Made by a program: the position numbers and the translations under genes
Assembly (NCBI GenBank): GCA_035536185.1
Contig: DATLOM010000021.1
Location: 41,731-105,730 of the forward strand
Length of the DNA stretch: 64,000 bases
Direction: 5' to 3'
DNA from: Acidimicrobiales bacterium
Lineage (GTDB): Bacteria > Actinomycetota > Acidimicrobiia > Acidimicrobiales > GCA-2861595
Shown: positions 35,051 through 50,906 of the stretch, in pieces
Layout of the letters: each line of letters opens with the position of its first letter
How positions within the stretch are numbered: the first letter of the stretch is position 1
Notes under the pieces: generated by a model
Told to the model about the DNA's origin: nothing
The model's input: only the letters and a program-made list of their open reading frames with translations
Databases searched by the model: none

Positions 35051-35113
35051 CCGGCGGCCGGGTGGCTACCAGGGGCGTGAAGCCTGTCCTCGATGTCTCG
35101 CGACATCCCAGAG

Positions 35114-35187
35114 TGGAGACGATGGGACTCGAACCCACGACCCCCGCCTTGCAAAGGCGGTGCTCTAGCCAACTGAGCTACGTCCCC
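35114..35187 (-). tRNA. tRNA-Ala (anticodon UGC)
   Basis: The reverse complement GGGGACGTAGCTCAGTTGGCTAGAGCACCGCCTTTGCAAGGCGGGGGTCGTGGGTTCGAGTCCCATCGTCTCCA folds as a cloverleaf. Anticodon stem CCGCC/GGCGG with loop TTTGCAA, G-U at acceptor position 4, T-arm GTGGG-TTCGAGT-CCCAT. Confidence 0.9.
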
Positions 35188-35303
35188 GGGGGATGAAGAA
35201 AAGGTGGCAGAAAACCCCCGTTGACCCGTATTGTAGGCAACCTGCCCAGACGATCCTTGGCGATCAACGACTGGGCCAACCCCGAGGGCGACGACGAGAA
35301 GGC

Positions 35304-35358
35304 GGCGTTCACCGAGACGGTGACCCAGGGCTGGCGTTCATCGAGACGGTGACCTAGG
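35304..35358. repeat. Tandem 26-nt direct repeat, period 29
   Basis: GGCGTTCACCGAGACGGTGACCCAGG (35304-35329) and GGCGTTCATCGAGACGGTGACCTAGG (35333-35358), 24/26 identical. It lies in a stretch that reads like a broken coding remnant (..DWANPEGDDEKAAFTETVTQGW / ..ERIEQKMVEAVNGLRQLENG..). Confidence 0.8.
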
Positions 35359-35854
35359 AGCGGATCGAGCAGAAGATGGTCGAGGCGGTGAACGGACTCC
35401 GCCAACTTGAAAATGGTTCGAACTGGACCCCGCTCCACTTCGACGACGCTCTCAGCCCCGTCGCCTTGACGGCGGCGTTTATGACGACGGGTACCACACG
35501 CTCCGCGAGGTGAAGCCGCAGGCCGGCGCGATGCGGGCGACCGGGAGTCCGCCTAGAAGCGCCATGTTTGAAGGCGCCGCGAGCAGTTCAGTGGGCGGTA
35601 CAGCTGGTGTGTGGAGTCCCTTCCGTAGGACAGTGCGGTGATCTGCCACGGGCGACTGACGAAGCGCCACGCCGAAGCGAGTGCAGCCGCTACCCACTGC
35701 TCAGCTTGTGGGCGCCCCGAGATCGCCGAGCCCTCAGGTCTCGCCGATGGGCAGACGGGCCCATGACTGGCCGCGGCGTCGTCTTGGACGCAGGCGTTCG
35801 AGGTCCCGCATGTCGTGACGAACAGTGTGAGTGCCGTCGCACTGCCCGTGCCAT

Positions 35855-35872
35855 AATGACAAATATGTCATT
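35855..35872. promoter_or_regulatory. Perfect 7-bp inverted repeat in the putative promoter of the NTase-HIT operon
   Basis: AATGACA-AATA-TGTCATT overlaps a -10-like CATAAT and ends about 80 nt upstream of ATG 35951. Candidate operator for the adjacent XRE-type regulator. Confidence 0.45.
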
Positions 35873-35950
35873 CTCTCCTCGCTCCCTTTCGCCCTGGGCG
35901 CGTGTTGTTCAGGGCCTTAGGCGTACAGGCGCTTGGAGGCGGAGCCTGGC

Positions 35951-37002
35951 ATGAGCCTGCACCGAGCAATCGAAGAAGCAGCGACCGCGCTGCGGATTGA
36001 CCGCGAGATTGATGCGCTACGCACCGCCGCCGAGTGGTCGGAGGGTCGGCTGGCTGAAGCAGAGGCCCACATTAAAGGCTTGATATCGCCGGAGGAGGCG
36101 GAAATCGACGTTTTGGTCTTGGGATCGTACGCTCGCGGGGAAGCATCAACGAAAAGTGACTTCGATTACTTGATTGTCCCGCACGGGCTCCCCCCGGCGG
36201 GCTCGATTCGTTTTACCCGTGACCTACTTCGAGCCGTGGATGAGTTCATTGAGAGACTCGGCAAGCTAGCGGTCGACGACGACGACGACCCGTCTGACCG
36301 GAGGCCGGGCGGCACAGGGTTGTTCGGACAGATCCAATCAGCATCTGACCTTGTGGAGCGGATAGGTCTTGAACAGGACACGAATACGACCCACACGCGT
36401 CGTCACTCGTGCTGCAGGAGAGCCGGTCCATCTTCCGCCCCGACCTGCACGACAATTTGTTGCACAGCGTGCTCGCCCGTTACCTAAGCGACTACCAGCA
36501 CGGGCAGAAGGCAGGACCACCACGGTTCTTAATTAATGACCTGAACAGGTACTGGTACACGGTAGCCGTTGACTACCAGGCCGAGCGTTGGGAACGCTTG
36601 GAGCGCGGTTGGCGGATTCGCTACCTCAAGCTGCTTGTGTCTCGTCGATTGAGTTACGTCGCTGCTGTGATCCCACTTCTCCTGTGCTCCGCGGAGAACC
36701 TGGCCGAGGTTGATCGACTGGTGGAACTATATAAGCAGCCGCCATTAGCACGACTCTCGTCCCTTGTGACCTACAGCGGCTTTCAGGAGCAGGCCGAACT
36801 GGCCACTGTCCTGCGAACAGCGAATGACTTCATTGAGACGCTCTCCCAGCCAGGTAATCGTTCGCTTCTTGAACAAACCGCTGACGAAGTGCCGCTGTTC
36901 GATGAGATGAAGGCACTTACAAAAAAATTAGACAATACTCTGAGAACGATCCTCTTCGGGTCGCTACTTTCTAACGAGTCGAAGCGGTACTTGGTTCTCT
37001 AA
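35951..37002 (+). pseudogene. Nucleotidyltransferase (pol-beta fold, GlnD/DUF294- or SMODS-like), interrupted by a -1 frameshift
   Basis: ORF 35933-36487 carries the NTase signature (VLVLGSYARGEASTKSDFDYLIV). It loses sense after ...IGLEQDTNTTHTRR. ORF 36409-37002, whose frame is open from 36373, continues LVLQESRSIFRPDLHDNLL...FLINDLNRYWYTVAVDYQAERWE... The joined product is about 350 aa. The frame switch lies within 36373-36487, most likely near 36405. Confidence 0.6.
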
Positions 37003-37003
37003 G

Positions 37004-37438
37004 GTGAGCAATCTAGAGTACGCGTGTCGCGAATGCAGCTTCGAGATTTACATCCCTATCGGTGCATTTGAATCGACCGTCGTTGGACTTTATGACGATA
37101 GAAGGTTTCCTGGCCGGTGCATCGTTGTGCTACGAGACCACTACGAGCACCTCGATCAAGTGCCTGAGCGGCTAGCCCTTGAGATGCAACGACTATGCAC
37201 CGCCGTGGGCCGTACCTTACGTTCTGCGGGACTGGCGACGAGAGTGAACTATGCCGTCCTGGGAAACGAGCATCCGCACGTTCATACACATGTCATCCCC
37301 CGAGGCGGACCGAACGACCTAGTGCCCAAGCGCCCACCATGGCAGCACCCACACCCTGTGACGAAGTTGGCTCACGCCGAACGGACCGCCCTGCTGGACC
37401 TACTCAAAAGATCGCTTCACCAATTCGAGGCAGGCTAG
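37004..37438 (+). CDS. HIT (histidine triad) family nucleotide hydrolase/transferase
   Basis: 144 aa. Histidine triad HPHVHTHVIPR. N-terminal CRECSF... pattern and GRCIVVLRDHYEHLDQV. GTG start lies 1 nt after the NTase stop. Confidence 0.85.
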   Translation: MSNLEYACRECSFEIYIPIGAFESTVVGLYDDRRFPGRCIVVLRDHYEHLDQVPERLALEMQRLCTAVGRTLRSAGLATRVNYAVLGNEHPHVHTHVIPRGGPNDLVPKRPPWQHPHPVTKLAHAERTALLDLLKRSLHQFEAG

Positions 37439-37689
37439 GCGGGCTGGCTTGTTCGCTCTAGCTTTATCTCGATCGGGATTGCGAGCTCATCTGCTATGGC
37501 CAGCGCAGTACGCAAGGGCCATCGGTCACGACTGAGTAGTACTTGGACGACGGCTGGAACGGCTCCGAGGCGCTTCGCCAAAGCCTCTGGCTCGTTGAGA
37601 AGCCCGCTCTCCTCGAGTACCGCCATGACAACGCGCTGAACCTCAGCTGACACCGCTCGTTCGATGCCACCCGGGTCATGGCCGGTCAT
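37435..37689 (-). CDS. XRE-like HTH transcriptional regulator
   Basis: 84 aa. LAKRLGAVPAVVQVLLSRDRWPLRTALAIADELAIPIEI resembles an XRE-type HTH. Its stop overlaps the HIT stop (convergent, CTAG at 37435-37438). Confidence 0.55.
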   Translation of the reverse strand: MTGHDPGGIERAVSAEVQRVVMAVLEESGLLNEPEALAKRLGAVPAVVQVLLSRDRWPLRTALAIADELAIPIEIKLERTSQPA

Positions 37690-37892
37690 GGTTCTCCCCC
37701 CACGGTGACAACAGTCGGTTCAGACGACTCAGGCGATTCGTACGGATGCACATCTCTCCTTCATTTAGCCGAACGTGTGTTCGATACTACACGTGCTGAC
37801 AGCAGACGCTCCCCCCACCCATTTTTAGGCGATTTTTGACCCAGCGCCGCGGATGGTGGCTCGGGTTATCGCAGATATCGTTGAATATTGAG

Positions 37893-38318
37893 ATGGCTGC
37901 GTCCATGGCCGGTGAGGCCCCTCAAGAATCAACCACTGGTGAGTACGGCTTCACCTCCAGTCAGGTCCGGAGCCTTCTCGACTGCAGCGACGGAACGGCC
38001 CGAAAGCTATGTCCGCCCACTCTCATGAGTCGCTCCGGGGTGCAGCTAGCGCCCCATGAAGTTGTTCGGCGGGTGCGCCAGGATCTCCTTCTCCGTCTCC
38101 GCGCACGAGAACTCGACCCTGCGGATGAGGCGCAACGGCCGGCAGCGCCCGACGGCGACGCAGTCGCAACGCTTCAGGAACGAGTGATGGTGCTCGAGGA
38201 GCGCCTTCGGCTGATCAGTGCCGCACGAGCAGCGGCGCGTGAGGGGACCCGAATGGCGTTAGCTGAGGAGGACGCTTACCTGCAGGGCATGACGCTGGAC
38301 CTGCGGCCTCCCCGCTGA
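37893..38318 (+). CDS. Hypothetical protein (possible N-terminal HTH, C-terminal coiled coil)
   Basis: ATG 37893 chosen inside track ORF 37836-38318. GFTSSQVRSLLDCSDGTARKL is HTH-like, and LQERVMVLEERLRLISAARAAA is heptad-like. No family recognised. Confidence 0.4.
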   Translation: MAASMAGEAPQESTTGEYGFTSSQVRSLLDCSDGTARKLCPPTLMSRSGVQLAPHEVVRRVRQDLLLRLRARELDPADEAQRPAAPDGDAVATLQERVMVLEERLRLISAARAAAREGTRMALAEEDAYLQGMTLDLRPPR

Positions 38319-38459
38319 CACAACTACCCCGAGGAGTGACTGGAATGACGACCGCTGCTCGCCACACAGGATGGCTGTCACACCGTCGGGGGAGTATGGC
38401 CATGGTGTCATTATCGACGTTCGTCGTCTTCGGCGGGCAAGTCAACCCAGGAAGGGCCC

Positions 38460-38915
38460 ATGATCAACACTTCTCCGGTGCACGAAGCGGGCCACGCTCT
38501 TGCCGCGCTGCTCCTGGGCTTGAACGTCACTGAGATGCTGTATAGCAACATCAACAATGCCTCAACCGACGTAGCTAAGGAGGGTGTGGCTATCGCGGAT
38601 CTCGGAGTCGTGGCGCTGGCCGGCCTAGCGGCTGTTGAGATCATCCATGGGGCGGGTGCTGAAGCGATGGAGGACCAGGAGGGTGCCGAGTGCGATCTCC
38701 CGAAGGCAAGGGCATACGCGACCGCGCTCGAGGAGAGCCCCGAGGCACAAGACTGTCTGCTTCACGAGTGGCGAGACAAGGCAACGACGCTGCTCCGGTC
38801 GCCCGGCATGCCGGAAGCCTTGGAGGCGCTCGGCGGCTTGCTCGTGCGCAGAGGGCGTTTGACTGGTGACGACGTCCGGGAAGTCTTCGGCGGCCGCGTT
38901 CCGTCTGTTAAGTGA
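38460..38915 (+). CDS. Stand-alone FtsH-type (M41-like) zinc metallopeptidase domain protein
   Basis: 151 aa. HEAGHALAALLLG matches the FtsH HEAGHA zinc motif. Later segments parallel FtsH (ALAGLAAVEIIHG resembling GGRAAEE, and the C-terminal ALGGLLVRRGRLTGDDVREVF). No AAA+ domain or TM is present. Confidence 0.6.
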   Translation: MINTSPVHEAGHALAALLLGLNVTEMLYSNINNASTDVAKEGVAIADLGVVALAGLAAVEIIHGAGAEAMEDQEGAECDLPKARAYATALEESPEAQDCLLHEWRDKATTLLRSPGMPEALEALGGLLVRRGRLTGDDVREVFGGRVPSVK

Positions 38916-38933
38916 CCAGGCGAGGACATCGCG

Positions 38934-39791
38934 ATGACGTCTCCGAAGGGGTGGGCGAAACAGGCCGGCGCCTCCCGGCGCGTACTGCTAGTACTCGGTT
39001 TGGGGGTAGCGGGACTCTCGCTCCTCTTCCTCCTCGCGGTACTCGTCCTCACCGCTTGGCGGGTCGGGGCTCTGCCGTCGCAGTCGACGACTGAGACCGC
39101 GACCCAGCTCCAAGGAATCATTGCCGCCGTCAACCTCGTCTTGGTAGTGGTCTTGGCCGCAACGACCGTCTACTACGCCATCCAGAACAAGCGCATGGCC
39201 GACGAGATGCGGTCCGCCAGGGAATTCACCGTCCACCCGCGGATCGCTCTCGACCTCCCCTTCCTCGGACCCTTCTACGTGTTGGTTCGGGTGGTCAACG
39301 TCGGTCTTGGCCCAGCGTTCGACGTGCGCCTCCGCTTGGTGTTCGAGGCCACGCCTGCTTCAGGAAGGCCCACTACAGAGCGTGAGTGGAGGACGCCCCT
39401 TCTCGCTCCCGGGCACCACCAAGACTTCGACGTGTCTGGGCCAGGCGGCGTACCCGTCACCTTCACAGATCTCCCTAAAGAGTTCAGTCGGATCCGCCTC
39501 ATCGGAACAATGTCGGACGGCCTCGGGAACTCATCCTCGATCGACGAGACAATGAGTGACCTCGCAGATTGGGTCCAGAGAATCAACTCCGCTGAGGCGC
39601 TTCTCCCGATTGACCACCTGGAGAAGGCCGCTGACTCCCTTGAGGAGATCAAGCGAACAGTCAAGTCGTGGAGCGCCATCAGCGGTGGCCTACGAGTGCG
39701 CACGGACCAAGACCTGGCTCGTGAGATGGAGAACGCTCGCAGGCGGCGCGACGAAATGGTCGAGCAGGACCGTCCCGGCACTGGCCAGTGA
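38934..39791 (+). CDS. Hypothetical 2-TM membrane protein with beta-rich and helical C-terminal regions
   Basis: 285 aa. TM1 VLLVLGLGVAGLSLLFLLAVLVLTAW and TM2 IIAAVNLVLVVVLAATTVYYAI. Then VRVVNVGLGPAFDVRLRLVF (beta-sandwich-like) and a charged helical tail. Confidence 0.55.
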   Translation: MTSPKGWAKQAGASRRVLLVLGLGVAGLSLLFLLAVLVLTAWRVGALPSQSTTETATQLQGIIAAVNLVLVVVLAATTVYYAIQNKRMADEMRSAREFTVHPRIALDLPFLGPFYVLVRVVNVGLGPAFDVRLRLVFEATPASGRPTTEREWRTPLLAPGHHQDFDVSGPGGVPVTFTDLPKEFSRIRLIGTMSDGLGNSSSIDETMSDLADWVQRINSAEALLPIDHLEKAADSLEEIKRTVKSWSAISGGLRVRTDQDLAREMENARRRRDEMVEQDRPGTGQ

Positions 39792-41161
39792 TACCCAGCG
39801 AGTGCGCCGCGTTCCGGATTTCGGCTGATCGCGTTCCAGGCTCTCCGGCCGACCGCTCAATGAGCAGCGAGTTCGCAGTTTTCTTCACCCCCTACGTCCC
39901 CTGGGGGGGAATCGCGGCTCTTTCGAGCCAACGCCGGTGCAGCGTAACGCCCGAGGCCACCCTCCGATCGCCCGTTGTCTATCCTCGGCCCCTGCCCCAC
40001 CTCCGAGAAGATGCCGACGAGGTCCCCGGAGCGGGTGGAACATGGGGCATCTGGTCGGAGGAGCGTCGGCTGGCCACCGTCACCGTCGAACGACATGACG
40101 GGGGAGGCCCCCCGCTACTCGGTGTGCGAATCGTCCAGCCCCTCCAGTGCAGCAGCGAAGACGCCAGGCAGATCGTGGCCGGCGTAATCAGCCATGCCCG
40201 GGAGCTGCAGGTCCGTCATGTCGATCTCGACACCATCGACCCGCTCGTGCGCCACGAAGCCCGTCTGGCCGGTTTCGACGGCCCTCTCCGCCAGCCGCTG
40301 CGTGGGAACCTCGAGATCCTCCTGGGGCCGTCCCCGGGCGGGCCGGCGACGACCGAGCCCGAGGCGCTGGCCCGGGAGGTGGGGCGGCTTGCCGGCGTGC
40401 AGGTGACCGTGCGGCCGGCTGGGGGTTGGCTGGCCAAGCTGGCGCGGGGTGCCGTGGCCGGGTTCGGTGACATGGTGAACCTGGTCGCCCAGGGCGGTGG
40501 CGGCGGCGGGGACTTCACCCTCGCCGTTCCCCACCGGGTCGATGTCCTGCCCGAGAGCCTGGCTCTGGCCGTGGACACCCTTCTCGGGATCCGTCGCCGC
40601 TTCGGCCGCGCCATCGACCACCTGCGGCTGGTGTCGTTCGACCACGCCAGCCACGGGCTGAAGGTGGGTAGCTACGCCGGCCAGGCCCAGACCAACGTCG
40701 GCATCATCCACCTCAACGCCTCCTACGCGCGGGCGGCAGAGCTCGAGGAGCAGCGCCGGCCCCACCCGGTACTCGGCCCCGAATACCGCTTCTCAGGATC
40801 GACGATCCCGCCCTACAGCACCCTCGAACGCACCGCCGCCCACGAGGCATGGCACCAGATCGAGGGCGCCTTCGAAGCCCGTGTCTACAAGCGCAGCATC
40901 GAGATGCGCCGGCGCCTCGGGGCCCACTTCGGGGTGGAGACCCTGGAACATGCGATCCTCGGCCGCAAGCCCGACGCACCACCGGCGTGGAAGGCGGCCC
41001 AGGCGCGACTCGTGCAGGAGGTTTCGAACTACGGGGGCACCCTGCCGGGTGAGGCGACGGCGGAGATGTTCAAGGACTGGTGGTGTCCCATCGTGCCGGC
41101 ATCGCCGGCGGTGCGGCTGTTCGGGCAGCTGGTGGAGGAGTACTTCCCGCCCCCGGATTGA
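39788..41161 (+). CDS. Hypothetical protein with HEXXH motif (HEAWH) and a possible GNAT-like N-terminal region
   Basis: 457 aa. GTG 39788 overlaps the upstream TGA (GTGA), supporting coupling, but ATG 39860 is an alternative start. AAHEAWHQIE lies near the C-terminus. N-terminal region QIVAGVISHARELQVRHVDLDTIDPLVRHEARLAGF is GNAT-tail-like. G+C rises back to the genome level within this gene. Confidence 0.5.
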   Translation: MIPSECAAFRISADRVPGSPADRSMSSEFAVFFTPYVPWGGIAALSSQRRCSVTPEATLRSPVVYPRPLPHLREDADEVPGAGGTWGIWSEERRLATVTVERHDGGGPPLLGVRIVQPLQCSSEDARQIVAGVISHARELQVRHVDLDTIDPLVRHEARLAGFDGPLRQPLRGNLEILLGPSPGGPATTEPEALAREVGRLAGVQVTVRPAGGWLAKLARGAVAGFGDMVNLVAQGGGGGGDFTLAVPHRVDVLPESLALAVDTLLGIRRRFGRAIDHLRLVSFDHASHGLKVGSYAGQAQTNVGIIHLNASYARAAELEEQRRPHPVLGPEYRFSGSTIPPYSTLERTAAHEAWHQIEGAFEARVYKRSIEMRRRLGAHFGVETLEHAILGRKPDAPPAWKAAQARLVQEVSNYGGTLPGEATAEMFKDWWCPIVPASPAVRLFGQLVEEYFPPPD

Positions 41162-41358: not shown

Positions 41359-42366
41359 CTAGGCCGAGCCCGCTCCCAACGACTCGGGGCGCCCGAAGGC
41401 GGCGGCCCGGACGCCGCGCAGCGCCAGCTCCTGAAGGAAGGGCAAGGGGTCCTCGACCATCTCGGCCAGACCGCTGGCGCCTGACCGGGCGAGGAGGCCC
41501 CGCATGGCCCAGTCGGCAGCCACGCCGGCGACCGTCCCGGCGGCCACCGCCGGGCGGTCGAGGGCGCCGAGCACCCGCACATCGGTCGCCTGGCCCCGCC
41601 GCCCCCGCACCTCGACCCGTAGGGCGCCAAGGGTGCCCTCCGGGTGAGGCCGGCGCATCATGGGCAGGCGCGCCGTCAACCGGTCACGGCGGGATGCGGC
41701 CACCCGGGCAGTGACCCTCGTCACACCTGGGAAGGCGGGCACGAGCACTAGGGGGTCGGGCGCCGCCGCGTGGTAGCAGTCGCGGGAACCGATGGGGTCG
41801 GGGAACCAGGCCAGCTCCCGGCCGGAGCCGCCCCGTCTCGTGGTCCACACCCCGTCCCGCCACTCCGGGCCGTCGGCCCCCCGGGCGGCGTGGTGGTGCT
41901 CCGCACAGGCAGGGCCGCCCGTGCCCGACTTGGCCACGTGCACCTCCTCCACACGATCGAAGCCCGCGGCCGCGTGCTTGGCCAGCAGGCAACCCAAACC
42001 GGGCGCGAAGGCCGCTCCGACGACGACGCTGCGATCCCGGCGGCGGGCCTCCTCGTCGAGCGCGAGCAGGCCCCGCACCTCGGCGAGGTCGTCGGCGATC
42101 GATACGACGTGGGCACCGGCGGCCAGCGCCGCCGCCGCCATGGGCGCGTGCCCGCTCGGCAGAGCGAGCACCACCACGGCGGCAGCGTCGAGGGCATCCG
42201 AGCCCCACGACCCGACGGCCGCCGGCGGGCCCAGCGACGCGGCCACGGCGTCGGACCGCGCTCGGTCGGTGTCGATCACCACCAGCTCCGTAGACGCTCC
42301 CGGCGTAAGTACCTGGCGCGCCGCCCGGGCGCCCACCGCCCCCAGCCCGGCTACTACGACCTTCAC
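41359..42366 (-). CDS. Saccharopine dehydrogenase-like NAD(P)-binding protein
   Basis: 335 aa. N-terminal Rossmann motif MKVVVAGLGAVGARAA. The overall pattern resembles the Sacchrp_dh family. Function unknown. Confidence 0.6.
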   Translation of the reverse strand: MKVVVAGLGAVGARAARQVLTPGASTELVVIDTDRARSDAVAASLGPPAAVGSWGSDALDAAAVVVLALPSGHAPMAAAALAAGAHVVSIADDLAEVRGLLALDEEARRRDRSVVVGAAFAPGLGCLLAKHAAAGFDRVEEVHVAKSGTGGPACAEHHHAARGADGPEWRDGVWTTRRGGSGRELAWFPDPIGSRDCYHAAAPDPLVLVPAFPGVTRVTARVAASRRDRLTARLPMMRRPHPEGTLGALRVEVRGRRGQATDVRVLGALDRPAVAAGTVAGVAADWAMRGLLARSGASGLAEMVEDPLPFLQELALRGVRAAAFGRPESLGAGSA

Positions 42367-42557
42367 TACCGGAGATCCGGCCCCGAGAGCTCGTGCCAGG
42401 CCCCGCCCGGTGTCGGTGTCGACGTGGCGCTGTTCCTGCGGGAGCGCAGCGCGGCGGTGGCGGCACTAGCCACGCTGACAACGATCAGTACCCGCCGGAC
42501 CACCTTCACGCTTCGCACGTGGACACCCTACCGGGGCCCTGTGCCAGGCCCTCCGGC

Positions 42558-44033
42558 TCAGGCATCCGGCGGGCAATTCTTGCCCTTGCCCTGGGACCGG
42601 CAGCTCGGGGACGGCACCGTGGGGCCAATGGTGGTCGTGGGGGGCCCAGCAGGCGTAGTCGTCACGACGGGGGGCAGGGGAGCTGTCGTTGGTGGGGCGG
42701 TCGTCGGTGAAGGCAACGGTGTTGGCTCCGGCGCCGGCGCAGCCAACGGTTCGACGGCCGGTGGGCCCGCTGCCGGCGGAACGGTCGGGGCCGGGGGTAC
42801 GGGCGCGGGCGGCAGCGTCACCCGCGGCGCCGTCACACGGGGAAGCGTCGGGACTGTCCTCCTCGGGAGCAGCCTCGAGGGACCGACGGATCCTGCCTCG
42901 GGTCTCGTGGTCGACTGCGCTGGCGTAGTCCCGTCCGCGGAGTCGGGCCGCTCGACCGGCACCGGCTCCCCGCCGGCCATCTCCGGCCAGAGCGGGACCT
43001 CAGGAGCGGGCTCCAGCCCCCGCGTCCGTCCGGACGCCTTCCTGATGCGCTCGAGCAGCTGCAGGCCGGACCAGTCGCCGACCTCCAGGCGGCGCAGGCC
43101 CAGGCGAGCATCGTCACTGCTCACCAACGGGACCTTCTCCTGGTCGTCCTGGTGGAAGGCGACGTGATAACGACGAGCCACCTCCTCGGCCAGCACCTTG
43201 CGGATGCCGGGGTGGTTGGTGCGCTCCGCCCCGTAGGCGCCGAACGGATAGGCGAAGGCCACCGGCCGACGTCCGACGTGGCCCTCGATGGCGGTGCTGG
43301 CCCTGCGAAGATCAACGCGTACGCGGAGCCGGTACTCGTCGAGGGACTCACCGGGTGAGAGGCTGGTGAGGGCCGGAAGTTCGCTGCCGGCAGCGGTCTC
43401 CTGCTCATGGTGAAGTCCCGAGGTGTGCGACTGGAGGTCCCAGCGCCCCGAGCGGGCGTAGCCCTCCAGCTTCTCCCACGAGGCGTAGTAGATGCCCGGC
43501 TTCTCGGCCGCGCCGGTGATCACGAACATGGTGGCGACCATCCCCGCTTCGGCGAGAAGAGGGTCGGCGAACATCATGGCGTCGGTACGGCCGTCGTCGA
43601 AGGAGATCATCACCGCCTTGGCGGGGAGAGGACGACCGCCGCTGAAGGCGGCGGCAACCTGGGCGGCGGTGACGGCGCGCATGCCGGCGGCACGCAGGAT
43701 CGCCAGGTGCTCGGCGAAGCGCTCGGGGGATACGACGAACCCGCCGTCGCCGTCGGAAGCGGACCCGATGCCGTGGTAGGCGAGGGCCATGACCGGCCCC
43801 TGGTACTTCGGCGCCGCCGAGATGGCGGCGGCAAGCTCGGCCTTGGTGAGTTCCGGCAGGGAGGGGGGCCTGAGGGCGACCGACGCCCGATCCCGCACCA
43901 GCCGTCCCTCGGGGGTGAGGTTGGCGTAGGCGACGAACGGGAGCGCGGAGAGGGGGATGGCGATCAAGCCGGAGACGACCTGGCGCAGCCGCGGGCGAAG
44001 CGCCCTCGAACGGGTGGACGAGGCGCCGCTCAT
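42558..44033 (-). CDS. Polysaccharide deacetylase (NodB-homology, CE4) with signal/TM anchor and Pro-rich tail
   Basis: 491 aa. NodB motif VMISFDDGRTD. Later FAYPFGAYG and a C-terminal P/T/A-rich low-complexity region. ATGA-type overlap with the upstream synthase gene (44030-44033). Confidence 0.85.
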   Translation of the reverse strand: MSGASSTRSRALRPRLRQVVSGLIAIPLSALPFVAYANLTPEGRLVRDRASVALRPPSLPELTKAELAAAISAAPKYQGPVMALAYHGIGSASDGDGGFVVSPERFAEHLAILRAAGMRAVTAAQVAAAFSGGRPLPAKAVMISFDDGRTDAMMFADPLLAEAGMVATMFVITGAAEKPGIYYASWEKLEGYARSGRWDLQSHTSGLHHEQETAAGSELPALTSLSPGESLDEYRLRVRVDLRRASTAIEGHVGRRPVAFAYPFGAYGAERTNHPGIRKVLAEEVARRYHVAFHQDDQEKVPLVSSDDARLGLRRLEVGDWSGLQLLERIRKASGRTRGLEPAPEVPLWPEMAGGEPVPVERPDSADGTTPAQSTTRPEAGSVGPSRLLPRRTVPTLPRVTAPRVTLPPAPVPPAPTVPPAAGPPAVEPLAAPAPEPTPLPSPTTAPPTTAPLPPVVTTTPAGPPTTTIGPTVPSPSCRSQGKGKNCPPDA

Positions 44034-45574
44034 ACGTCCGACCGGACCGGCTCGACGGCCCCCTCCCGCCGGCCATGCTCGTAATCCTCAGGTGTACCGA
44101 ATCGTTCCGGCCGCACGGCGTCGCGCCTCTCGGGTGGCAAGGCGACGACGAGCTCGGGGTCGACCTTTGCGTGCTCCACGGTGGATGCGCGGGTGCCCCA
44201 CCGGGTGTCGCGCATGGTGAGAATGCCCCAGTAGGTCTGGAAGACCAGCACGCTCATGTAGAGGGCCACGAAGGTCATTCCGTGGTACCACAGGCCGTCG
44301 TGGCGCTTGAACGCGTAGAACAGCGAGTAGAGCAGCGCCATGGCGTAGGTGCCGATGATGTAGAACCAGAGCCCCCCCGGCTGGCCACCGACGAGCCGGC
44401 CGGCAACGGCATGCAACACGACCCACGGCGCCATGAACGGGAAGGCGATGGAGGCGTAGGTGAACACTGCGGCCACCGGGTTCTTCCTCCAGAAGTAGCG
44501 CAGAACCTGTAGCGACTCGCGGAGCCATGACTTCTTCCAGCGCAGCTGCTGTCGGAAGAAGACCCGCAAGGAGTCCGGGGCGACGGTCTCCGCCCGGGCC
44601 GACGCCTGGTAGACGACGCGGTGGCTGGCCAGGATGCGGTTGGTCAGCGCCCGGTCGTCGCCGAAGGTGGCGGGCCGGCCCAGGAAGGTCTGGAACTCCC
44701 AGGCATCCAGCAGGGGGAGCACGACACTCCGCCGGTAGGCGGCACAGCATCCCGAGGCGCAGGTGACCGTGCCCGCCAGCAGCGACTCCGCGCCCTTTAT
44801 CACCCGGAAGGCCGAGAAGTAGCGGACCTGTTGCATCTTGGTGATCCAGTTGACCGAGTGGTTCCGGACATCGGCGTGACCCACCACGGCCCCGACCCGC
44901 TGGTCGGCGAAGGGTGCCACGATGGCCGTCAGCGCGTCGGGGTCGAGGTACGAGTCGGAGTCGACGAAGCACAGGATCTCGCCCCGTGCCCGGCGGATTC
45001 CCTCGGCCATGGCCGCTCGCTTGCCGTAGTTGCGGCCGAGGGTCACCGCATACAGCCCCGGCCACCGGGCCTTGGCCTCCTGAATGCGTTCCCACGTGGC
45101 ATCGGTGGACCCGTCGTCGACCACGATGACCTCGAAGAGAGCCGCCGGGTAGTCGACGGCCAGGCAGGAGGCAATCGTCCCGATGATCCCGTCCTCCTCG
45201 TTGAAGCCGGGGACGACGATCGACACCGTCGGCCGATGCTGGCGGTCGGGAGCGGATCGGTAGAAGAGGGCCAGGACGAAGCGGCCCAGCACGTAGAAGA
45301 CGACGGCGATGGAGTAGGAGGCGAACAGCGGGTCCCGGCCCAACGTGGCAAAAGTGAGGTCCTTGGTGAGCCATATGAAGCCCAGGATGAGCACGGCGTA
45401 GGCGGCGACAACCACCTTGAGGATGCCCCGGAGCAGCCGCTGGAGGATCAAAGCAGGATGACGTGGTCGTCCCGACGGTGCCGGGTCGTACCGGTGGCGT
45501 CGAACACCAGCGGCGAGGATGCGACGACCGTGTCGTAGTCGACGTCGGAGTGGGCCGTGAGGATGACCACGCAA
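44030..45574 (-). CDS. GT2 processive polysaccharide synthase, HasA/NodC/chitin-synthase-like
   Basis: Motifs VVDDGSTD, VDSDSY, CASGCCAAYRR, FGDDRALTN, FRQQLRWKKSWLRES and RDTRWGTR parallel my recollection of Streptococcus HasA (GDDRCLTNYA, QQNRWNKSFFRES, NTEWGTR). The longest ORF starts at 45574 but overlaps the upstream gene by 127 nt. A TTG at 45451 overlapping that gene's TGA (TTGA) is the more likely start, giving 473 aa. Confidence 0.88.
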   Translation of the reverse strand: MRGHPHGPLRRRLRHGRRILAAGVRRHRYDPAPSGRPRHPALILQRLLRGILKVVVAAYAVLILGFIWLTKDLTFATLGRDPLFASYSIAVVFYVLGRFVLALFYRSAPDRQHRPTVSIVVPGFNEEDGIIGTIASCLAVDYPAALFEVIVVDDGSTDATWERIQEAKARWPGLYAVTLGRNYGKRAAMAEGIRRARGEILCFVDSDSYLDPDALTAIVAPFADQRVGAVVGHADVRNHSVNWITKMQQVRYFSAFRVIKGAESLLAGTVTCASGCCAAYRRSVVLPLLDAWEFQTFLGRPATFGDDRALTNRILASHRVVYQASARAETVAPDSLRVFFRQQLRWKKSWLRESLQVLRYFWRKNPVAAVFTYASIAFPFMAPWVVLHAVAGRLVGGQPGGLWFYIIGTYAMALLYSLFYAFKRHDGLWYHGMTFVALYMSVLVFQTYWGILTMRDTRWGTRASTVEHAKVDPELVVALPPERRDAVRPERFGTPEDYEHGRREGAVEPVRSDV

Positions 45575-46899
45575 TCGGCGGCGGCGAGAAGGTCTGCGTC
45601 GAGCGGGACCGAGTGCAGCAGCCGCTCGTGATCTTCGGCCTCCGGCCCTCCTCGGGGCGCGTCTCCCGCCCGCCTGCTGCTCAGGTTCACCGACGTGACA
45701 TGGTCGTCGTGGTAGACGCAGTCGGCGCCGGCGTCGAGCAGGTGACGCAGGACCCGGAGCGCAGGAGACTCCCGCACGTCGTCCACTCCTGCCTTGTAGG
45801 CCAGGCCCAGCACCACGACCCGGGCTCCCCGGAGCGGCTTTCCCATCCCGTTGAGCGCCTCGCCGATGCGACTGGCCACGTAGGCGGGCATGCGGTTGTT
45901 GACCGAGCGGGCGTGCTCTATGAACCCGATGCCGAACCCGAGGCGCTGCTCCACCTTCCAGGAGAGATAGCTCGGGTCGATGGCGATGCAGTGGCCGCCC
46001 ACACCGGGCCCGGGCCAGAACGGGAGGTAGCCGAAAGGCTTGGTGGCGGCCGCGTCGAGGGCCTCCCAGATGTCGACGCCGATGGCCGATGCGATGGTGG
46101 CGAGCTCGTTCACGAGGGCGATGTTCACCTGGCGGAAGGTGTTCTCGATCAGCTTCACCATCTCTGCATTTCGGGTCGACGAGACCGGCACGACATGGTC
46201 CACCACCGCGCCGTAGAAGCGGCAGGCCAGGTCGGTGGCCATGGCGCCGAGGCCGGCGACGATCTTCGGCGTCTCCCGTACGGAACGACCGCTGCCAGGA
46301 TCGATGCGCTCCGGTGAATAGCCGAGGGCGAAATCCCGGCCGGCGACCAAACCACCCCTTTCGAGGATCGGGCGCACCAGATCCTCGGTGGTGCCCGGAT
46401 AGGTCGTCGACTCGAGGACGATCAACTGACCCGGCCGCAAGATCCGAGCGATGTCTCCGGCCGCGGCCCTCACCAGGGACAGGTCGGGCCCGCCGTCCCG
46501 GAGGGGAGTGGGAACTGCGATCACGATGACGTCGGCCGCGACGAGCACGCGGTGGTCGGTAGTGAACTGGACCTGTTCCAGGGCCGTCAAGTCCTCTCCG
46601 CTCACGTCCCCCACGTATGAACAGCCGGTGCGCAGTGCCTGCACCTTGGCCCGGTCGGTGTCCAGCCCGATCACCGCAAAGCCTTCTTTGCCGGCGGCGA
46701 CGAGCAGCGGAAGACCGACATAACCAAGCCCCACCACCGCAACCATGGCCGTCCGGTCGTCGATCCGGTCCGCCAGGCCGCCCAGCGGGCTCAGGTCCGG
46801 GTGGCCGCCGAGCGCCTGCCCATCGTCATCGCCCAGCTCCAGCCGGGTCGCGTCACCGGCATCGACCTCTCTGGGCACGGTCAGCTGCGTAGGGGTCAT
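45448..46899 (-). CDS. Nucleotide-sugar dehydrogenase (UDP-glucose/GDP-mannose dehydrogenase family, WecC/WbpA-like)
   Basis: 483 aa. Rossmann VAVVGLGYVGLPLL preceded by LADRIDDRTA, typical of UDP-N-acetyl-hexosamine dehydrogenases. Catalytic region GGHCI. Confidence 0.88.
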   Translation of the reverse strand: MTPTQLTVPREVDAGDATRLELGDDDGQALGGHPDLSPLGGLADRIDDRTAMVAVVGLGYVGLPLLVAAGKEGFAVIGLDTDRAKVQALRTGCSYVGDVSGEDLTALEQVQFTTDHRVLVAADVIVIAVPTPLRDGGPDLSLVRAAAGDIARILRPGQLIVLESTTYPGTTEDLVRPILERGGLVAGRDFALGYSPERIDPGSGRSVRETPKIVAGLGAMATDLACRFYGAVVDHVVPVSSTRNAEMVKLIENTFRQVNIALVNELATIASAIGVDIWEALDAAATKPFGYLPFWPGPGVGGHCIAIDPSYLSWKVEQRLGFGIGFIEHARSVNNRMPAYVASRIGEALNGMGKPLRGARVVVLGLAYKAGVDDVRESPALRVLRHLLDAGADCVYHDDHVTSVNLSSRRAGDAPRGGPEAEDHERLLHSVPLDADLLAAADCVVILTAHSDVDYDTVVASSPLVFDATGTTRHRRDDHVILL

Positions 46900-47144: not shown

Positions 47145-48173
47145 CTACTGAAGCAGACGCTCGGTCGCTTCTTGGATCGCAGCGTAAAGCTCGCCGACTC
47201 CTCCGGTCTCCTCGTAATCGGCAGCGGCCTCGGCGAGAACATACACTCTTTGGGCGGACTCAGCGAGTGCCTCACGGCCGATATCGTCCTGGCTTGCTGC
47301 CAACGTTGTTCGCAGGGCCAAGGCGATCGTCTCGGATGCCGCTACGGCGAGTTCGGACTCGGGTGTGACCTGTAGTAGTTCGGTCAATGCGCTCGCGAGT
47401 TCCGCAAGAGCGGCCATCCGTTGCTGCTGAGCGCCGAGCCGCGTCTGCTCCGCGAACCATCCGATGAAATCTTCGAAGGCGAGCCGTTGCGATTCATCGG
47501 GCCGCGGAAGCGTGATTGAGTGCTCATCGCCTGCGCCGGGCGACCAGACAGCTTCGCCAGAGAAGTGGAGCTGGTTCTCACCGAGAAGGTGAGCGGCCCA
47601 CCACTTCGCATTGGAGTCGCCATGGATACCGTGGAGCGCCTGCAGCTGCTCCTTCTTCTGGGTCTTCTTCGGTTCGGACCACCGCCACCAAAATTGCTCA
47701 GGGTCGAATAGCAGGTCAGCTGGGTCACCAACCAGCAGCCGTTCGAAGTAGACGATGTCATGAGCGCGAACAACGACCCGTGCGTAACCGATCTCGTCGA
47801 GCCGATAGAGGCGCATGCTCTCGTGCACGTGCTCGTTGCAGAAGTTGATAACCGCACGTCCGAGCGCTTGTACTCCCTCGTCCGACTCGTGCGACGCTTG
47901 GATGAGCGACGCGGCGTTCGGGATCTTTGCTCGTTTCCATGTGACGGGCGTGTCCTGCTTCGTGGACTTGACCTGCCAACCGTAACCACCTTCCTGCGCG
48001 ACGACGTCGATGAAGTCGTATGTGTTCAGAACCTCGCCCTCCCGGACGCGAGCGAGAACGGTCTCGGCGTACGCGCCGGGGATGCTCGCGGCAGCGAAGG
48101 GTAGGCGGAAGTAGTTCTGCAGAAGCTCGCCGATGCGCTCAAGCTGGTCGCTCGTGGAGTAGACACGACTCAC
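47145..48173 (-). CDS. Putative type II restriction endonuclease (PD-(D/E)xK-like)
   Basis: 342 aa. Called from position immediately downstream of, and overlapping, a C-protein gene and next to an m5C MTase and vsr. Candidate nuclease core YDFIDVVAQEGGYGWQVKS. No family recognised; C-terminal third is Ala-rich and helical. Confidence 0.6.
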   Translation of the reverse strand: MSRVYSTSDQLERIGELLQNYFRLPFAAASIPGAYAETVLARVREGEVLNTYDFIDVVAQEGGYGWQVKSTKQDTPVTWKRAKIPNAASLIQASHESDEGVQALGRAVINFCNEHVHESMRLYRLDEIGYARVVVRAHDIVYFERLLVGDPADLLFDPEQFWWRWSEPKKTQKKEQLQALHGIHGDSNAKWWAAHLLGENQLHFSGEAVWSPGAGDEHSITLPRPDESQRLAFEDFIGWFAEQTRLGAQQQRMAALAELASALTELLQVTPESELAVAASETIALALRTTLAASQDDIGREALAESAQRVYVLAEAAADYEETGGVGELYAAIQEATERLLQ

Positions 48174-48465: not shown

Positions 48466-49593
48466 CTACTTGACGAGTCGGGCCCTGACGGAGCCAGCGA
48501 TTGCAGCGGCCAGCAGGGCAGGCACCGCGTTGCCAACCTGGCGGCAACGGGCCGTCTTCCCTCCGATGAACCGAACGTTGTCGTCAAACGATTGCAGGCG
48601 CGCGGCCTCCCGAACAGTGATCGTTCGGGCGTCGTACGGGTGGTAGAACATGCCGCTGCCCGGGTGGTACATCCAGGTCGTGATCGTGAGAGCGGGGATG
48701 TCCCACGCCATCCGGCGATAAGCGCTTCCGTAGCCGCTCTTCGGCGCCAGGTGTGGCGGCAGTTTCTCAGCCCCGTCTCCTTCGCCGAGGTACGTGAGGC
48801 GCTCCCGCTGCACCTCGCTCATCCGCCAAGCGTGGTGTTCCGTGAGCTCGGAGACGCCGACCCGGCGCTCCTTCTGGTACGTGGTCGTCGGCTCTCGCCG
48901 GTACGACGTCCAAGTTTCGCCTTCGCCAAGTCCGGCGAGGTCACCGATGGCATCTCGGATCGTACGGTAGGGCTCGAGCGGGAAGAGACCGTCGTCCATG
49001 CTCTCGCCGTGAGACTTCGCAGGCAGGGCGATCGGCCCCGCCCGCGCGGCCAGGATGATCGCCCGACGCCGGCGCTGAGGTACTCCGTAGTCAGCAGCGT
49101 TCAAGACCCCGGCGGACATCGAGTAGCCCAAGTCGCCCAGGCGGCTCTCGATCTCGGTGGCGAAGCGGCCTTGCTCCTTGATCAGGAGTTCCGGGACGTT
49201 CTCGATGACGATGGCTCGCGGCCGAAGCTCCTCGACGAATCGCAAGTACTCCTTGAACAGGTAGTTCCGCGGGTCGTCGACAAACGCGCCGGCTACGTGG
49301 CGTCGAGCGCGATTCTTAGAGAACCCCTGGCAAGGAGGCCCCCCGACAAGGACGTCGAGTTCCCCCTTCCGGAGCCCGAGATCATCCAGCACTCGCTCAC
49401 TCGGCAAGTCTTCGATCGGGCCGGACCATGTCAACGCGTCCTGGTGGTTGAGCTTGAATGCCTCCAACGCCGCGTCATCGAAGTCGTTCCCACCGACGAC
49501 AATGAAGCCGGCGGCCTCGAAGCCAGTGGAGAGACCTCCGCAGCCGCAGAAGAGGTCGAGGACCTTCAGACCCATGCTCTCGATGTTACTCAT
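48466..49593 (-). CDS. dcm: DNA (cytosine-5)-methyltransferase
   Basis: 375 aa. Motif I LDLFCGCGGLSTGF, motif IV GGPPCQGFS, motif VI ENV, motif VIII QRRRR, motif X GNAVP. Confidence 0.95.
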   Translation of the reverse strand: MSNIESMGLKVLDLFCGCGGLSTGFEAAGFIVVGGNDFDDAALEAFKLNHQDALTWSGPIEDLPSERVLDDLGLRKGELDVLVGGPPCQGFSKNRARRHVAGAFVDDPRNYLFKEYLRFVEELRPRAIVIENVPELLIKEQGRFATEIESRLGDLGYSMSAGVLNAADYGVPQRRRRAIILAARAGPIALPAKSHGESMDDGLFPLEPYRTIRDAIGDLAGLGEGETWTSYRREPTTTYQKERRVGVSELTEHHAWRMSEVQRERLTYLGEGDGAEKLPPHLAPKSGYGSAYRRMAWDIPALTITTWMYHPGSGMFYHPYDARTITVREAARLQSFDDNVRFIGGKTARCRQVGNAVPALLAAAIAGSVRARLVK

Positions 49594-49610: not shown

Positions 49611-50072
49611 GTGGACCTACGCCCGCTCTGCGCGAGGTGTCAGGGCGCCGTGAGGACTAGGCGCCGATCAGCGGCCGCTATCTCGGCGGCGATGCGTGGG
49701 AGCCGACGTCGTGACACCCGGCCCGAGTTGGCATTGCGGCAAGAGCTCCATCGTCGTGGCCTGCGGTACGGGGTGGACCGCCCCGTTGTCGCCGGAGCTG
49801 TACGCGTGCGCCCGGATGTCGTGTTCCCGCGTGTGCGCGTCGCTGTGTTTGTGGACGGGTGCTGGTGGCACCGGTGTCCGGTCCACGGTCGAGAGCCCGA
49901 ACGAAACCTTGATTACTGGACCCCGAAGTTTGAGAGGAACATCCTTCGGGACCGTCGAGTCGACGCAGCGCTTGAGGCTGACGGGTGGACCGTCATCCGG
50001 ATCTGGGAACACGAGTCGGCCGGTGACGGCGCCGATCTCGTCGAAACTGTCATCCATCGAGAAGCGCGGTAG
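49611..50072 (+). CDS. vsr: Very-short-patch repair endonuclease
   Basis: 153 aa. RRRDTRPELALRQELHRRGLRY, PDVVFPRVRVAVFVDGCWWHRCP, NILRDRRVDAALEADGWTVIRIWEHE. Divergent from the m5C MTase with a 17-nt gap. Confidence 0.92.
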   Translation: MDLRPLCARCQGAVRTRRRSAAAISAAMRGSRRRDTRPELALRQELHRRGLRYGVDRPVVAGAVRVRPDVVFPRVRVAVFVDGCWWHRCPVHGREPERNLDYWTPKFERNILRDRRVDAALEADGWTVIRIWEHESAGDGADLVETVIHREAR

Positions 50073-50075
50073 ACG

Positions 50076-50372
50076 GTGGACACACGCTTCTGCGACCCAA
50101 TCCGGAGGCGCGATGTGCTGGAGGTTGTGTATCGCGGTACGACGCGAGTCGTCGAGCCCCATGGCCATGGCATCACCAGATCCGGGATGGAGGTCGTTCT
50201 CGTTTACCAGCGAGCCGGCGCGAGCAAGTCGGGGCGGGCGGAGGGTTGGAAGACGCTGCACGCCTCGGACATCGAGGCGGTGCGATTGCTCGGCACGAGG
50301 TTCCTGCGCGTGCGGGAAGATGCCGACCCGGACGCGCGAGAACTCGGAACGGTGCACTGCTTCGCCGGCTAG
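50076..50372 (+). CDS. Small WYL-like (SH3 beta-barrel) domain protein
   Basis: 98 aa. GTG lies 3 nt after the vsr stop. Pattern VVYRGTTRVVEPHGHGITRSGMEVVLVYQRAGASKSGRAEGWKTLHASDIEAVRLLGTRF matches a small family I recall being annotated as WYL-domain-containing. High third-position G+C. Preferred over the antisense ORF 49668-50390, which overlaps vsr. Confidence 0.5.
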   Translation: MDTRFCDPIRRRDVLEVVYRGTTRVVEPHGHGITRSGMEVVLVYQRAGASKSGRAEGWKTLHASDIEAVRLLGTRFLRVREDADPDARELGTVHCFAG

Positions 50373-50832
50373 CAACGCTGGATCGGACATGGCTCGATCG
50401 TAAGCTTGGGGTGTGACCCTCTGGGCGAGCGGTCGTTTGGGGCTACTGGAAGGGGAGCTGGCCAGGGCCTCTACAGCTCCAACCCTGTTCGCTTGACATC
50501 CGGATCCTGCTTTGCGAGACAGGGGTCGTCGTCAGGGGCCGAGCTGCCTCCGTGGCGGCGGTACGGTCGGCGACTACCGGGTGTTGTACAGGCCGGTGGA
50601 GCAAGGCCTGTGGGTGGAACGCATCGTTGATCGGCGTGACCTCGACCGAGCCGCAGCAACCCCGTGAGGTCCTGCGCCCGTGTGACGGGCGGCCTCGCCA
50701 GTCTCTCTGGTCGTCCGCCGTGCCCGCTACGTACCCGTAGCGACGGAAAATCCGGGTAAATCTCAGTTTCTGGCGGACACCGCCAGGACTGTCCTCACGC
50801 CACTTGACCTGCGGTTATGCCGTTTCCGGGAG

Positions 50833-50906
50833 TGGGGCTAGATGGAGTCGAACCATCGACCTCAGCATTATCAGTGCTGCGCTCTAACCAGCTGAGCTAT
50901 AGCCCC
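50833..50906 (-). tRNA. tRNA-Ile (anticodon GAU)
   Basis: The reverse complement GGGGCTATAGCTCAGCTGGTTAGAGCGCAGCACTGATAATGCTGAGGTCGATGGTTCGACTCCATCTAGCCCCA folds as a cloverleaf. Anticodon stem CAGCA/TGCTG with loop CTGATAA. Confidence 0.9.

Follow-up and report, generated by a model that had tools for sequence, protein, structure and literature searches.

A decayed nucleotidyltransferase-HIT hydrolase locus from an Acidimicrobiales bacterium, tentatively assigned to a defense-candidate family of nucleotidyltransferase-phosphohydrolase modules

Clover and PDC-M70 are among the known systems closest to the locus analyzed here. In Clover, the deoxynucleoside triphosphohydrolase (dNTPase) effector CloA has been shown experimentally to be restrained by p3diT from its partner nucleotidyltransferase (NTase), CloB (Yamaguchi et al. 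2025, PMC12265719). PDC-M70 (CAS_00217, a two-family cassette for which the authors' table of candidates gives a count of 32) belongs to 145 untested phage defense candidates, which were found as cassettes within BREX, DISARM, or type I restriction-modification loci (Payne et al. 2024, bioRxiv 10.1101/2024.01.29.577857). Here, we report a computational analysis of a 64,000-nucleotide (nt) stretch of DNA from an Acidimicrobiales bacterium (GenBank assembly GCA_035536185.1, contig DATLOM010000021.1, positions 41,731 to 105,730 of the forward strand; hereafter, the window), which contains adjacent genes for an NTase, a HIT-family hydrolase, and a small helix-turn-helix (HTH) protein. Our preferred, still tentative, interpretation is that this locus is a decayed, HIT-partnered variant of a family of NTase-phosphohydrolase modules that are candidates for a role in defense, in which the hydrolase would be an effector under the control of the NTase product.

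The NTase gene starts with the ATG at 35951 on the forward strand, 11 nt after a GGAGG at 35935-35939. It bears GSYARGEASTKSDFDYLIV and reads on in the first frame to ...NTTHTRR, with the N-terminal part (35951-36402, residues 1-151) encoding the pol-beta catalytic core that includes G58-S59, D70/D72, and D143. At 36401-36406, the codon after R151 is short by one base and the frame shifts to -1; three-frame translation shows that the protein continues only in that frame (...SLVLQESRSIF...), through a C-terminal helical part (36403-37002, residues 152-350), until the TAA at 37000-37002. The HIT gene (37004-37438, forward strand) runs from a GTG, 1 nt past the NTase stop, to a TAG and encodes a protein of 144 amino acids (aa) with CxxC, YDDRRFPGR, and HPHVHTHVIPR motifs, which appears intact. 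Convergent with it, with a 4-nt overlap at the stop, the small gene for the 84 aa HTH protein (37435-37689, reverse strand) is preceded by a good Shine-Dalgarno sequence. Such tight packing, with gaps or overlaps of a few bases, is found among the genes of the module across the family.

Restoring one base after R151 yields a 350 aa NTase that aligns end to end with 47 homologs of 335-365 aa, all of which are single open reading frames (ORFs) across the junction ...DTNxxHTRRxLLLQES..., with exactly one residue between HTRR and LLLQES. The frameshift site, near 36403, is not a homopolymer, and the contig that Logan assembled from run SRR8544467 (L074) shows 100% identity over positions 35173-40879 of the window, frameshift included. 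Because this independent assembly reproduces it, the 1-nt deletion is genuine at the assembly level. Programmed frameshifting was ruled out, given that a slippery motif is absent and that all homologs are single ORFs. Since the deletion cuts the NTase short after the catalytic core, the module in this genome is, judging from its reading frames, most likely inactive. An earlier, sequence-only reading of the window had reported the frameshift and considered the module possibly inactive, and our analysis agrees with it on both counts. The window copy is probably a pseudogene in a metagenome-assembled genome (MAG), of value mainly as a marker of the family. As an intact HIT gene remains beside the dead NTase, the HIT enzyme is unlikely to be toxic on its own. 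A second example of a broken NTase beside an intact hydrolase comes from a Planctomycetales MAG (L040): the NTase there consists of two ORFs (113 and 286 aa), next to a full-length partner ORF of the type of component B of PDC-M70 (PDC-M70B).

The repaired NTase matches the PADLOC model of component A of PDC-M70 (PDC-M70A) with an E-value of 2e-49, residues 16-338 aligning with positions 15-341 of the 355 in the model. Of the Pfam families, NTP_transf_2 narrowly passes its cut-off of 21 with 22.3 bits, covering the pol-beta core only, and DUF294 narrowly fails, with 19.4 bits against 21. Residues G58, S59, D70, D72, and D143 are invariant in 48 aligned NTases and correspond to the pol-beta catalytic motifs. 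An AlphaFold2 model of the repaired protein, based on the 48-sequence alignment (pLDDT 94.4, pTM 0.92), was compared with the PDB using Foldseek. The top match of the predicted structure was the AMPylation domain of DrrA/SidM (E 4.5e-4, TM 0.49), and both halves of GlnE matched as well (E 5.6e-4 and 1.4e-3; TM 0.34-0.51 for DrrA and GlnE). AadA/ANT (E about 0.02, TM about 0.25) came next, followed by minimal MNT antitoxins; HalB (E 0.19) and CdnE (E 0.36, TM 0.23-0.26) were poorer. On this model, the NTase is predicted to be GlnD/GlnE/DrrA-like, and neither a CD-NTase nor an NTase of a resistance or housekeeping family. The family comprises about 1500 representatives at E<=1e-10 among 1.84 billion.

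Three alternative assignments of the NTase were rejected: a CD-NTase/SMODS enzyme of CBASS, for which the best CdnE match has an E-value of 0.36 and no CBASS model appears among the PADLOC matches; an aminoglycoside NTase, the ANT(4')-II model scoring 14.7 bits against a cut-off of 350; and the type VII system HepT/MntA, the MntA model scoring 15 bits against 60 with no HEPN neighbor. The sequence-only reading had likened the C-terminal helical domain to GlnD/DUF294; the NTase has GlnD/GlnE/DUF294-type motifs and a predicted GlnE/DrrA-like fold; the fold comparison it had proposed for the repaired protein placed GlnE and DrrA, not CD-NTases, closest; and no characterized housekeeping or resistance family, which would have told against it, claims the NTase, with the ANT and MntA models far below their cut-offs. 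That reading had not recognized the combination of an NTase with HIT as a named system. This is correct for the HIT gene, which replaces component B, but the NTase itself corresponds to component A of the PADLOC candidate PDC-M70.

Gene neighborhoods were sampled at 73 loci (two metagenome contexts and 71 genome loci), the neighboring ORFs being clustered and the NTases clustered by identity, and three NTase clades with three different partners were delineated. In the clade of the window, which is found in Actinomycetota as well as some Myxococcota, Desulfobacterota, and others, a HIT gene is directly adjacent in 19 of 25 loci, in addition to the window. The second clade (Planctomycetota, Acidobacteriota, and Verrucomicrobiota) has the 240 aa PDC-M70B protein directly downstream in 33 of 34 loci; these partners match PDC-M70B with E-values of 1e-86 to 1e-93 and the Pfam family AP_endonuc_2, a xylose-isomerase-like TIM barrel, with E-values down to 1.8e-10, and show a weak match to the CbiR phosphodiesterase. 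In the third clade, from Alphaproteobacteria and reaching Enterobacteriaceae and pseudomonads in a search that returned 1493 matches, a 340-390 aa HD protein is encoded directly upstream in 13 of 14 loci. These HD proteins bear the dNTPase motif HDxGHxPFSHxxE, and their best matches are the EF1143 and SAMHD1 dNTPases and dGTPase models. The exceptions in the second and third clades are contig-edge cases. The HIT-clade NTases are about 27-31% identical to the M70B-linked ones, and window-type and HD-linked NTases align with an HHalign probability of 100% (E 3e-47, 306 columns); at the level of sequence profiles, the three clades are clearly homologous.

A metagenome scan seeded with HIT yielded 80 loci, with an NTase adjacent in 27 of about 47 that could be judged and about 20 with adequate flanks but no NTase; NTase-linked and unlinked HIT proteins are intermingled in the HIT tree. 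In four of the HIT-seeded loci and on a plasmid of Mycobacterium sp. SMC-8, the NTase and HIT genes are convergent rather than co-directional, so the linkage withstands rearrangement. HIT occurs without an NTase in about 40% of the HIT-seeded loci, and no other conserved partner of these NTase-less HIT genes was found, whereas six loci of the window's clade contain an intact NTase without HIT. Therefore, neither protein looks obligatorily toxic alone. On these comparisons, the NTase-HIT pair is a real, co-conserved, horizontally mobile module. The sequence-only reading had hinged on such recurrence, and the co-occurrence analysis it called for recovered the pair both in the clade (19 of 25) and in the HIT-seeded loci (27 of about 47). 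On a 1663-nt Logan contig (P0028), a 424 aa protein joins the NTase, in frame, to the C-terminal half of a HIT domain that includes HLHAHLIPR; this may be a deletion fusion or an assembly artifact. Fusion was discarded as evidence of linkage, because the N-terminal extensions of long family members are not HIT and P0028, on a contig of 1.7 kb, is a possible artifact.

The HIT assignment is supported by Pfam (PF01230, 34.8 bits against a cut-off of 21.5, E 2.6e-8) and by matches to HIT proteins in the PDB, the best being 2oik (E 2.9e-7), and the window protein retains all 22 residues that are invariant in the HIT clade. Homologs of the HTH protein match Pfam HTH_37 weakly (0.004-0.013). The placement of a HIT gene 1 nt behind an NTase of about 350 aa, and of a small convergent DNA-binding gene across the HIT stop, as first read from the sequence, is thus upheld. 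Neither the HIT protein nor the HTH protein matched any PADLOC model, even at E<=10. A hidden Markov model of the homologs located the small HTH gene in 14 of the 25 HIT-clade loci, with varying position: between the NTase and HIT genes on the same strand (L008, L015, L023, L032, and L052), upstream of the NTase (L003, L014, L019, and L022), after the NTase with HIT absent (L004, L007, and L009), or convergent after HIT (the window, L001, and L002). On this comparison, the HTH gene is the conserved third component of the module. The chromosome of Svornostia abyssi J379 holds two NTase plus small HTH copies (L007 and L009), with no HIT gene nearby.

Copies of the modules often lie among restriction-modification and other defense genes, or at sites flanked by integrase or prophage genes. 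We compared 118 large ORFs, located within about 3.3 kb of 29 NTase-HIT loci, with PADLOC; by our estimate, about 14-16 of the 118 match models strongly, the counts being per family rather than per ORF. The models include REase_I, REase_II, MTase_II, DrmA, DrmD, PglW, PD-Lambda-1, mad2, mad6, and several PDC models, such that restriction-modification, DISARM, and BREX models are often matched by neighbors of the module. The copy on the Mycobacterium sp. SMC-8 plasmid adjoins HsdR, and a Sinorhizobium copy of the M70B type adjoins AbiEii. The HD-NTase pair lies inside a phage-tail gene cluster in Klebsiella and between integrase genes in Salmonella. Complete E. coli genomes contain the HD-clade NTase only as one small plasmid copy; this plasmid, pISHS7_5 (NZ_CP092257.1, L075), is a 4.5-kb ColE1-type replicon that encodes Rop, an intact HD-clade NTase, an apparently truncated HD gene, and little else. 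A search of IMG/VR recovered no relatives, nor did a search of INPHARED with the HD-linked Klebsiella NTase.

We propose that the module is horizontally acquired and would operate with three components: an NTase resembling GlnE/DrrA, a hydrolase of the HIT family, and a small regulator of the HTH type. The NTase would turn nucleoside triphosphates into a nucleotide-derived product, which may serve as a small signal or be attached to the partner as a nucleotidyl mark; this product would control the hydrolase, a putative nucleotide-targeting effector, by a logic like that of Clover; and the HTH protein would regulate transcription of the module. The strongest argument for this proposal is the dNTPase-type HD partner in the sister clade, which speaks for hydrolases that act as effectors on nucleotides and not as erasers. 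Enzymes of the EF1143/SAMHD1 type act on free deoxynucleoside triphosphates (dNTPs) and are known antiviral effectors.

Several considerations weigh against control of an effector hydrolase by the NTase product. The PDC-M70 and HIT-type loci are candidates predicted from sequence, and some PADLOC matches of the neighbors, those to kinase and helicase models, may be generic. Inactivation of the NTase is toxic in Clover, yet the window combines a dead NTase with an intact HIT gene, a poor fit to strict Clover-type inhibition. The HIT protein is a minimal domain of 144 aa, with no obvious sensor domain for a signal, and the closest folds of the NTase, GlnE and DrrA, belong to enzymes that adenylylate proteins, as a covalent writer would. 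Clades and partners are strictly congruent, unlike the free shuffling of effectors in CBASS-type signaling. The apparent likeness to Clover is one of architecture, and the HD partners are not CloA orthologs, their catalytic residue numbering being different and no strong PDB match being found. Finally, the NTase-only and HIT-only loci argue equally against strict Clover-type inhibition and against a strict toxin-antidote relationship. These patterns of gene loss do not decide between an effector hydrolase and an eraser hydrolase paired with a writer NTase, and are met most easily if the effector needs a cue or activation.

A writer and its eraser were what the sequence-only reading had considered plausible, in the form of an add/remove function. 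Spelled out, the NTase would nucleotidylate an essential cellular or phage target, the HIT enzyme (or the HD or TIM barrel protein in the sister clades) would remove the modification, and the HTH protein would repress the operon, making up a toxin-antitoxin or defense pair. The paired NTase-HIT module has proved to be real, but the add/remove function is now a live rival, less likely in our view, rather than the favored explanation, because the partner in the sister clade is an HD protein of the dNTPase type, which acts on free dNTPs, and not a GlnD-type removing domain. On the side of the NTase, the predicted model does come nearest to two enzymes that AMPylate proteins, DrrA and GlnE (E 4.5e-4 to 1.4e-3 in Foldseek, TM 0.4-0.5), although the match is only moderate and the target a postulated one, and the sequence motifs are GlnD-like; GlnD itself joins an NTase domain to an HD uridylyl-removing domain. 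On the side of the hydrolases, the presence of three unrelated phosphoesterases in one position has the look of non-orthologous replacement of a removal activity. Nucleotidyl adducts are cleaved by HIT enzymes like aprataxin and Hint, but we know of no HIT enzyme that strips O-linked AMP from proteins. The dead NTase and intact HIT gene of the window form the pattern expected if the toxin was lost and the antidote kept, and the occurrence of HIT alone in about 40% of the HIT-seeded loci is compatible with an antidote; the six clade loci with an intact NTase but no HIT speak against it, except that in the five of the NTase plus HTH type, the HTH protein could restrain the NTase.

These five loci (L004, L007, L009, L019, and L022) would also suit an arrangement in which the core of the module is an NTase toxin with a small HTH antitoxin, similar to AbiEii/AbiEi or MenT/MenA, and HIT is an accessory or passenger. 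Small HTH proteins of the HTH_37 type, which the homologs in these modules match weakly, are typical antitoxins. We nevertheless deem this arrangement improbable: ten HIT-type genome loci and all M70B- and HD-type loci lack the HTH gene yet keep the hydrolase, HIT is linked more consistently than HTH (19 versus 14 of the 25 loci), and the variable position and strand of the HTH gene suit a regulator better than a stoichiometric antitoxin. No more credible is a mobile metabolic or regulatory pair outside biological conflicts (engaged in nucleotide salvage or small-molecule nucleotidylation, with defense neighbors incidental), which would accommodate the frequent occurrence of the HIT clade without the NTase or any conserved partner, the lack of relatives in the viral collections searched, and the weak similarity to aminoglycoside NTases, but sits poorly with the patchy, island-like distribution and low GC content, the recurrence of restriction-modification, DISARM, and BREX genes beside the module, the sister type having been picked up embedded in defense systems, the HD-type relatives in prophage- or integrase-flanked spots, and an ANT model score of 14.7 bits against a cut-off of 350.

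Upstream of the NTase, the sequence-only reading had described a palindromic operator overlapping a -10-like element. The perfect 7+4+7 palindrome AATGACA-AATA-TGTCATT is present at 35855-35872 and overlaps a CATAAT at 35852-35857, but a consensus scan called no sigma-70-type promoter there, and the operator was rejected. The window has 115 perfect palindromes with arms of 7 nt and a spacer of 0-10 nt (1.8 per kb), and shuffling the 300 nt upstream produces such a palindrome in 26% of cases. The palindrome is not conserved upstream of L001 and L002, which have their own, different palindromes, or of more distant loci, which share none, and half-sites of the ATGAC/GTCAT type upstream of homologous loci showed nothing above chance and nothing conserved. 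Because the palindrome is no commoner than chance and is not conserved, it is unsupported as an operator, and that claim is best dropped.

The module lies in a low-GC segment (35100-39900; GC 0.49-0.67 versus about 0.70 in the flanks) that adjoins a tRNA-Ala gene (35113-35187, reverse strand). About 15.6 kb separate this gene from tRNA-Ile (50832-50906), at the far end of the inter-tRNA stretch and just downstream of gyrA (51947-54415, reverse strand), the product of which is identical to HVE45976.1. In many actinobacteria, the tRNA-Ala and tRNA-Ile genes lie side by side, so that the inter-tRNA stretch would be a variable insertion hotspot. The same module is found at the same gyrA-proximal spot (near gyrA or DUF3566) in L001 and L002. 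Boundaries of an integrative element were not assigned, as no att-like direct repeats were found between tRNA-Ile and tRNA-Ala and no integrase among the large window ORFs scanned.

Other features share this part of the window. A C-5 cytosine DNA methyltransferase (48469-49593, reverse strand; Pfam E 4.6e-61) is encoded 11 kb from the module in the same inter-tRNA stretch, flanked by ORFs at 47148-48173 and 49671-50390 that have no family match; together, these genes may constitute a type II restriction-modification system. A polysaccharide-type cluster of normal GC content (41362-46899), also between the tRNA genes, includes UDP-glucose dehydrogenase, a family-2 glycosyltransferase, a polysaccharide deacetylase, and an oxidoreductase. 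In the 760 nt that separate tRNA-Ala from the NTase gene, a 26-nt unit occurs twice in tandem (35304-35358; 92% identical, 29-nt period); it has no Rfam match, and the Rfam scan returned tRNA only. Divergent from the small HTH gene, a gene at 37905-38318 (forward strand) encodes 137 aa as called in Logan, with an ORF that reaches back to 37836. Its position is kept only in the two closest loci, where BLASTP identity is 39-49% (L002, 8026-8442; L001, 7903-8352). The product has no Pfam or PADLOC match and, by eye, may have an N-terminal HTH and a C-terminal coiled coil.

What is new here is the HIT partner together with the HTH gene, the NTase being of the already known PDC-M70 candidate kind; we found no description of the HIT-partnered form of the family, and no PADLOC model matched it. 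It is possible, if far from assured, that NTase-HIT(-HTH) is an undescribed anti-phage system, that one NTase family controls three interchangeable phosphohydrolases, and that HIT is a new effector or else the first HIT eraser. If the module is functional in intact relatives, HIT enzymes would join the known immune components, and one NTase family would have acquired a different nucleotide phosphohydrolase as its partner on three separate occasions. The three clades would then provide a comparative series for how hydrolases are controlled by the products of NTases, or reverse them, a question that Clover has just opened for dNTPases. Intact copies are present in the cultured strains Amycolatopsis rifamycinica DSM 46095, Micromonospora sp. 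CA-246542, several Microbacterium strains, Dietzia natronolimnaea JCM 11417, and Nakamurella silvestris DSM 102309, and on the Mycobacterium sp. SMC-8 plasmid; therefore, the hypothesis is directly testable. Three of these modules are located at around 259.6-267.6 kb of NZ_JMQI01000068.1 (A. rifamycinica), around 6.614-6.627 Mb of NZ_CP192040.1 (Micromonospora), and 97.9-99.4 kb of NZ_CP079868.1 (the plasmid).

Among known systems, DarT/DarG offers a conceptual template for a writer and eraser, a modifier paired with a reversing hydrolase; the folds and chemistry (ADP-ribosylation, macrodomain) are unrelated, and the reversal role in the window is hypothetical. HepT/MntA likewise places a pol-beta NTase beside a small enzyme, and AMPylation of the partner is one possible mode of control, but the window lacks a HEPN partner and its NTase is three times larger, with a GlnE-like helical domain. 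GlnE, DrrA (SidM), and GlnD provide the best structural matches (6yx5_B, 1v4a, and 3k7d) and share the G-S-x-x-R-x-E...S-D-x-D motifs and the order of an NTase core followed by a helical domain; TM-scores are only 0.4-0.5 and identity is 10-14%, however, and the window NTase is a stand-alone protein of 350 aa without regulatory, HD, or ACT domains.

The comparison with Clover involves the two-gene architecture of a hydrolase and an NTase, CloA being a dGTPase, and the sister NTase clade, whose partner in Enterobacteriaceae and Alphaproteobacteria is an HD protein of the dNTPase type encoded at mobile or prophage sites. The positions of the catalytic Asp residues, D61/D63, match those of the Klebsiella and Citrobacter HD-clade NTases. 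No PDB chain matched as a counterpart of CloA or CloB, and neither NCBIfam nor PADLOC contains a CloB model; the HD-linked clade thus appears Clover-like in architecture. We did not adopt its identification as Clover, given that the HD partners in Klebsiella and Salmonella differ from the CloA residue numbering. The window itself differs further in that the partner is HIT rather than an HD dNTPase, no HD domain being present among the window proteins scanned, and in that loss of the NTase, toxic in Clover, is tolerated. PDC-M70 differs from the window in its component B, a 240 aa xylose-isomerase-like TIM barrel, in place of which the window has HIT, with the small HTH gene added; in addition, the window NTase is not intact owing to the 1-nt deletion, and the HIT-linked NTases form a separate clade. 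The likeness to PDC-M70 consists of a match to component A over the full length of the window NTase, a two-enzyme operon in which the NTase comes first and a small phosphoesterase next, and an association with defense.

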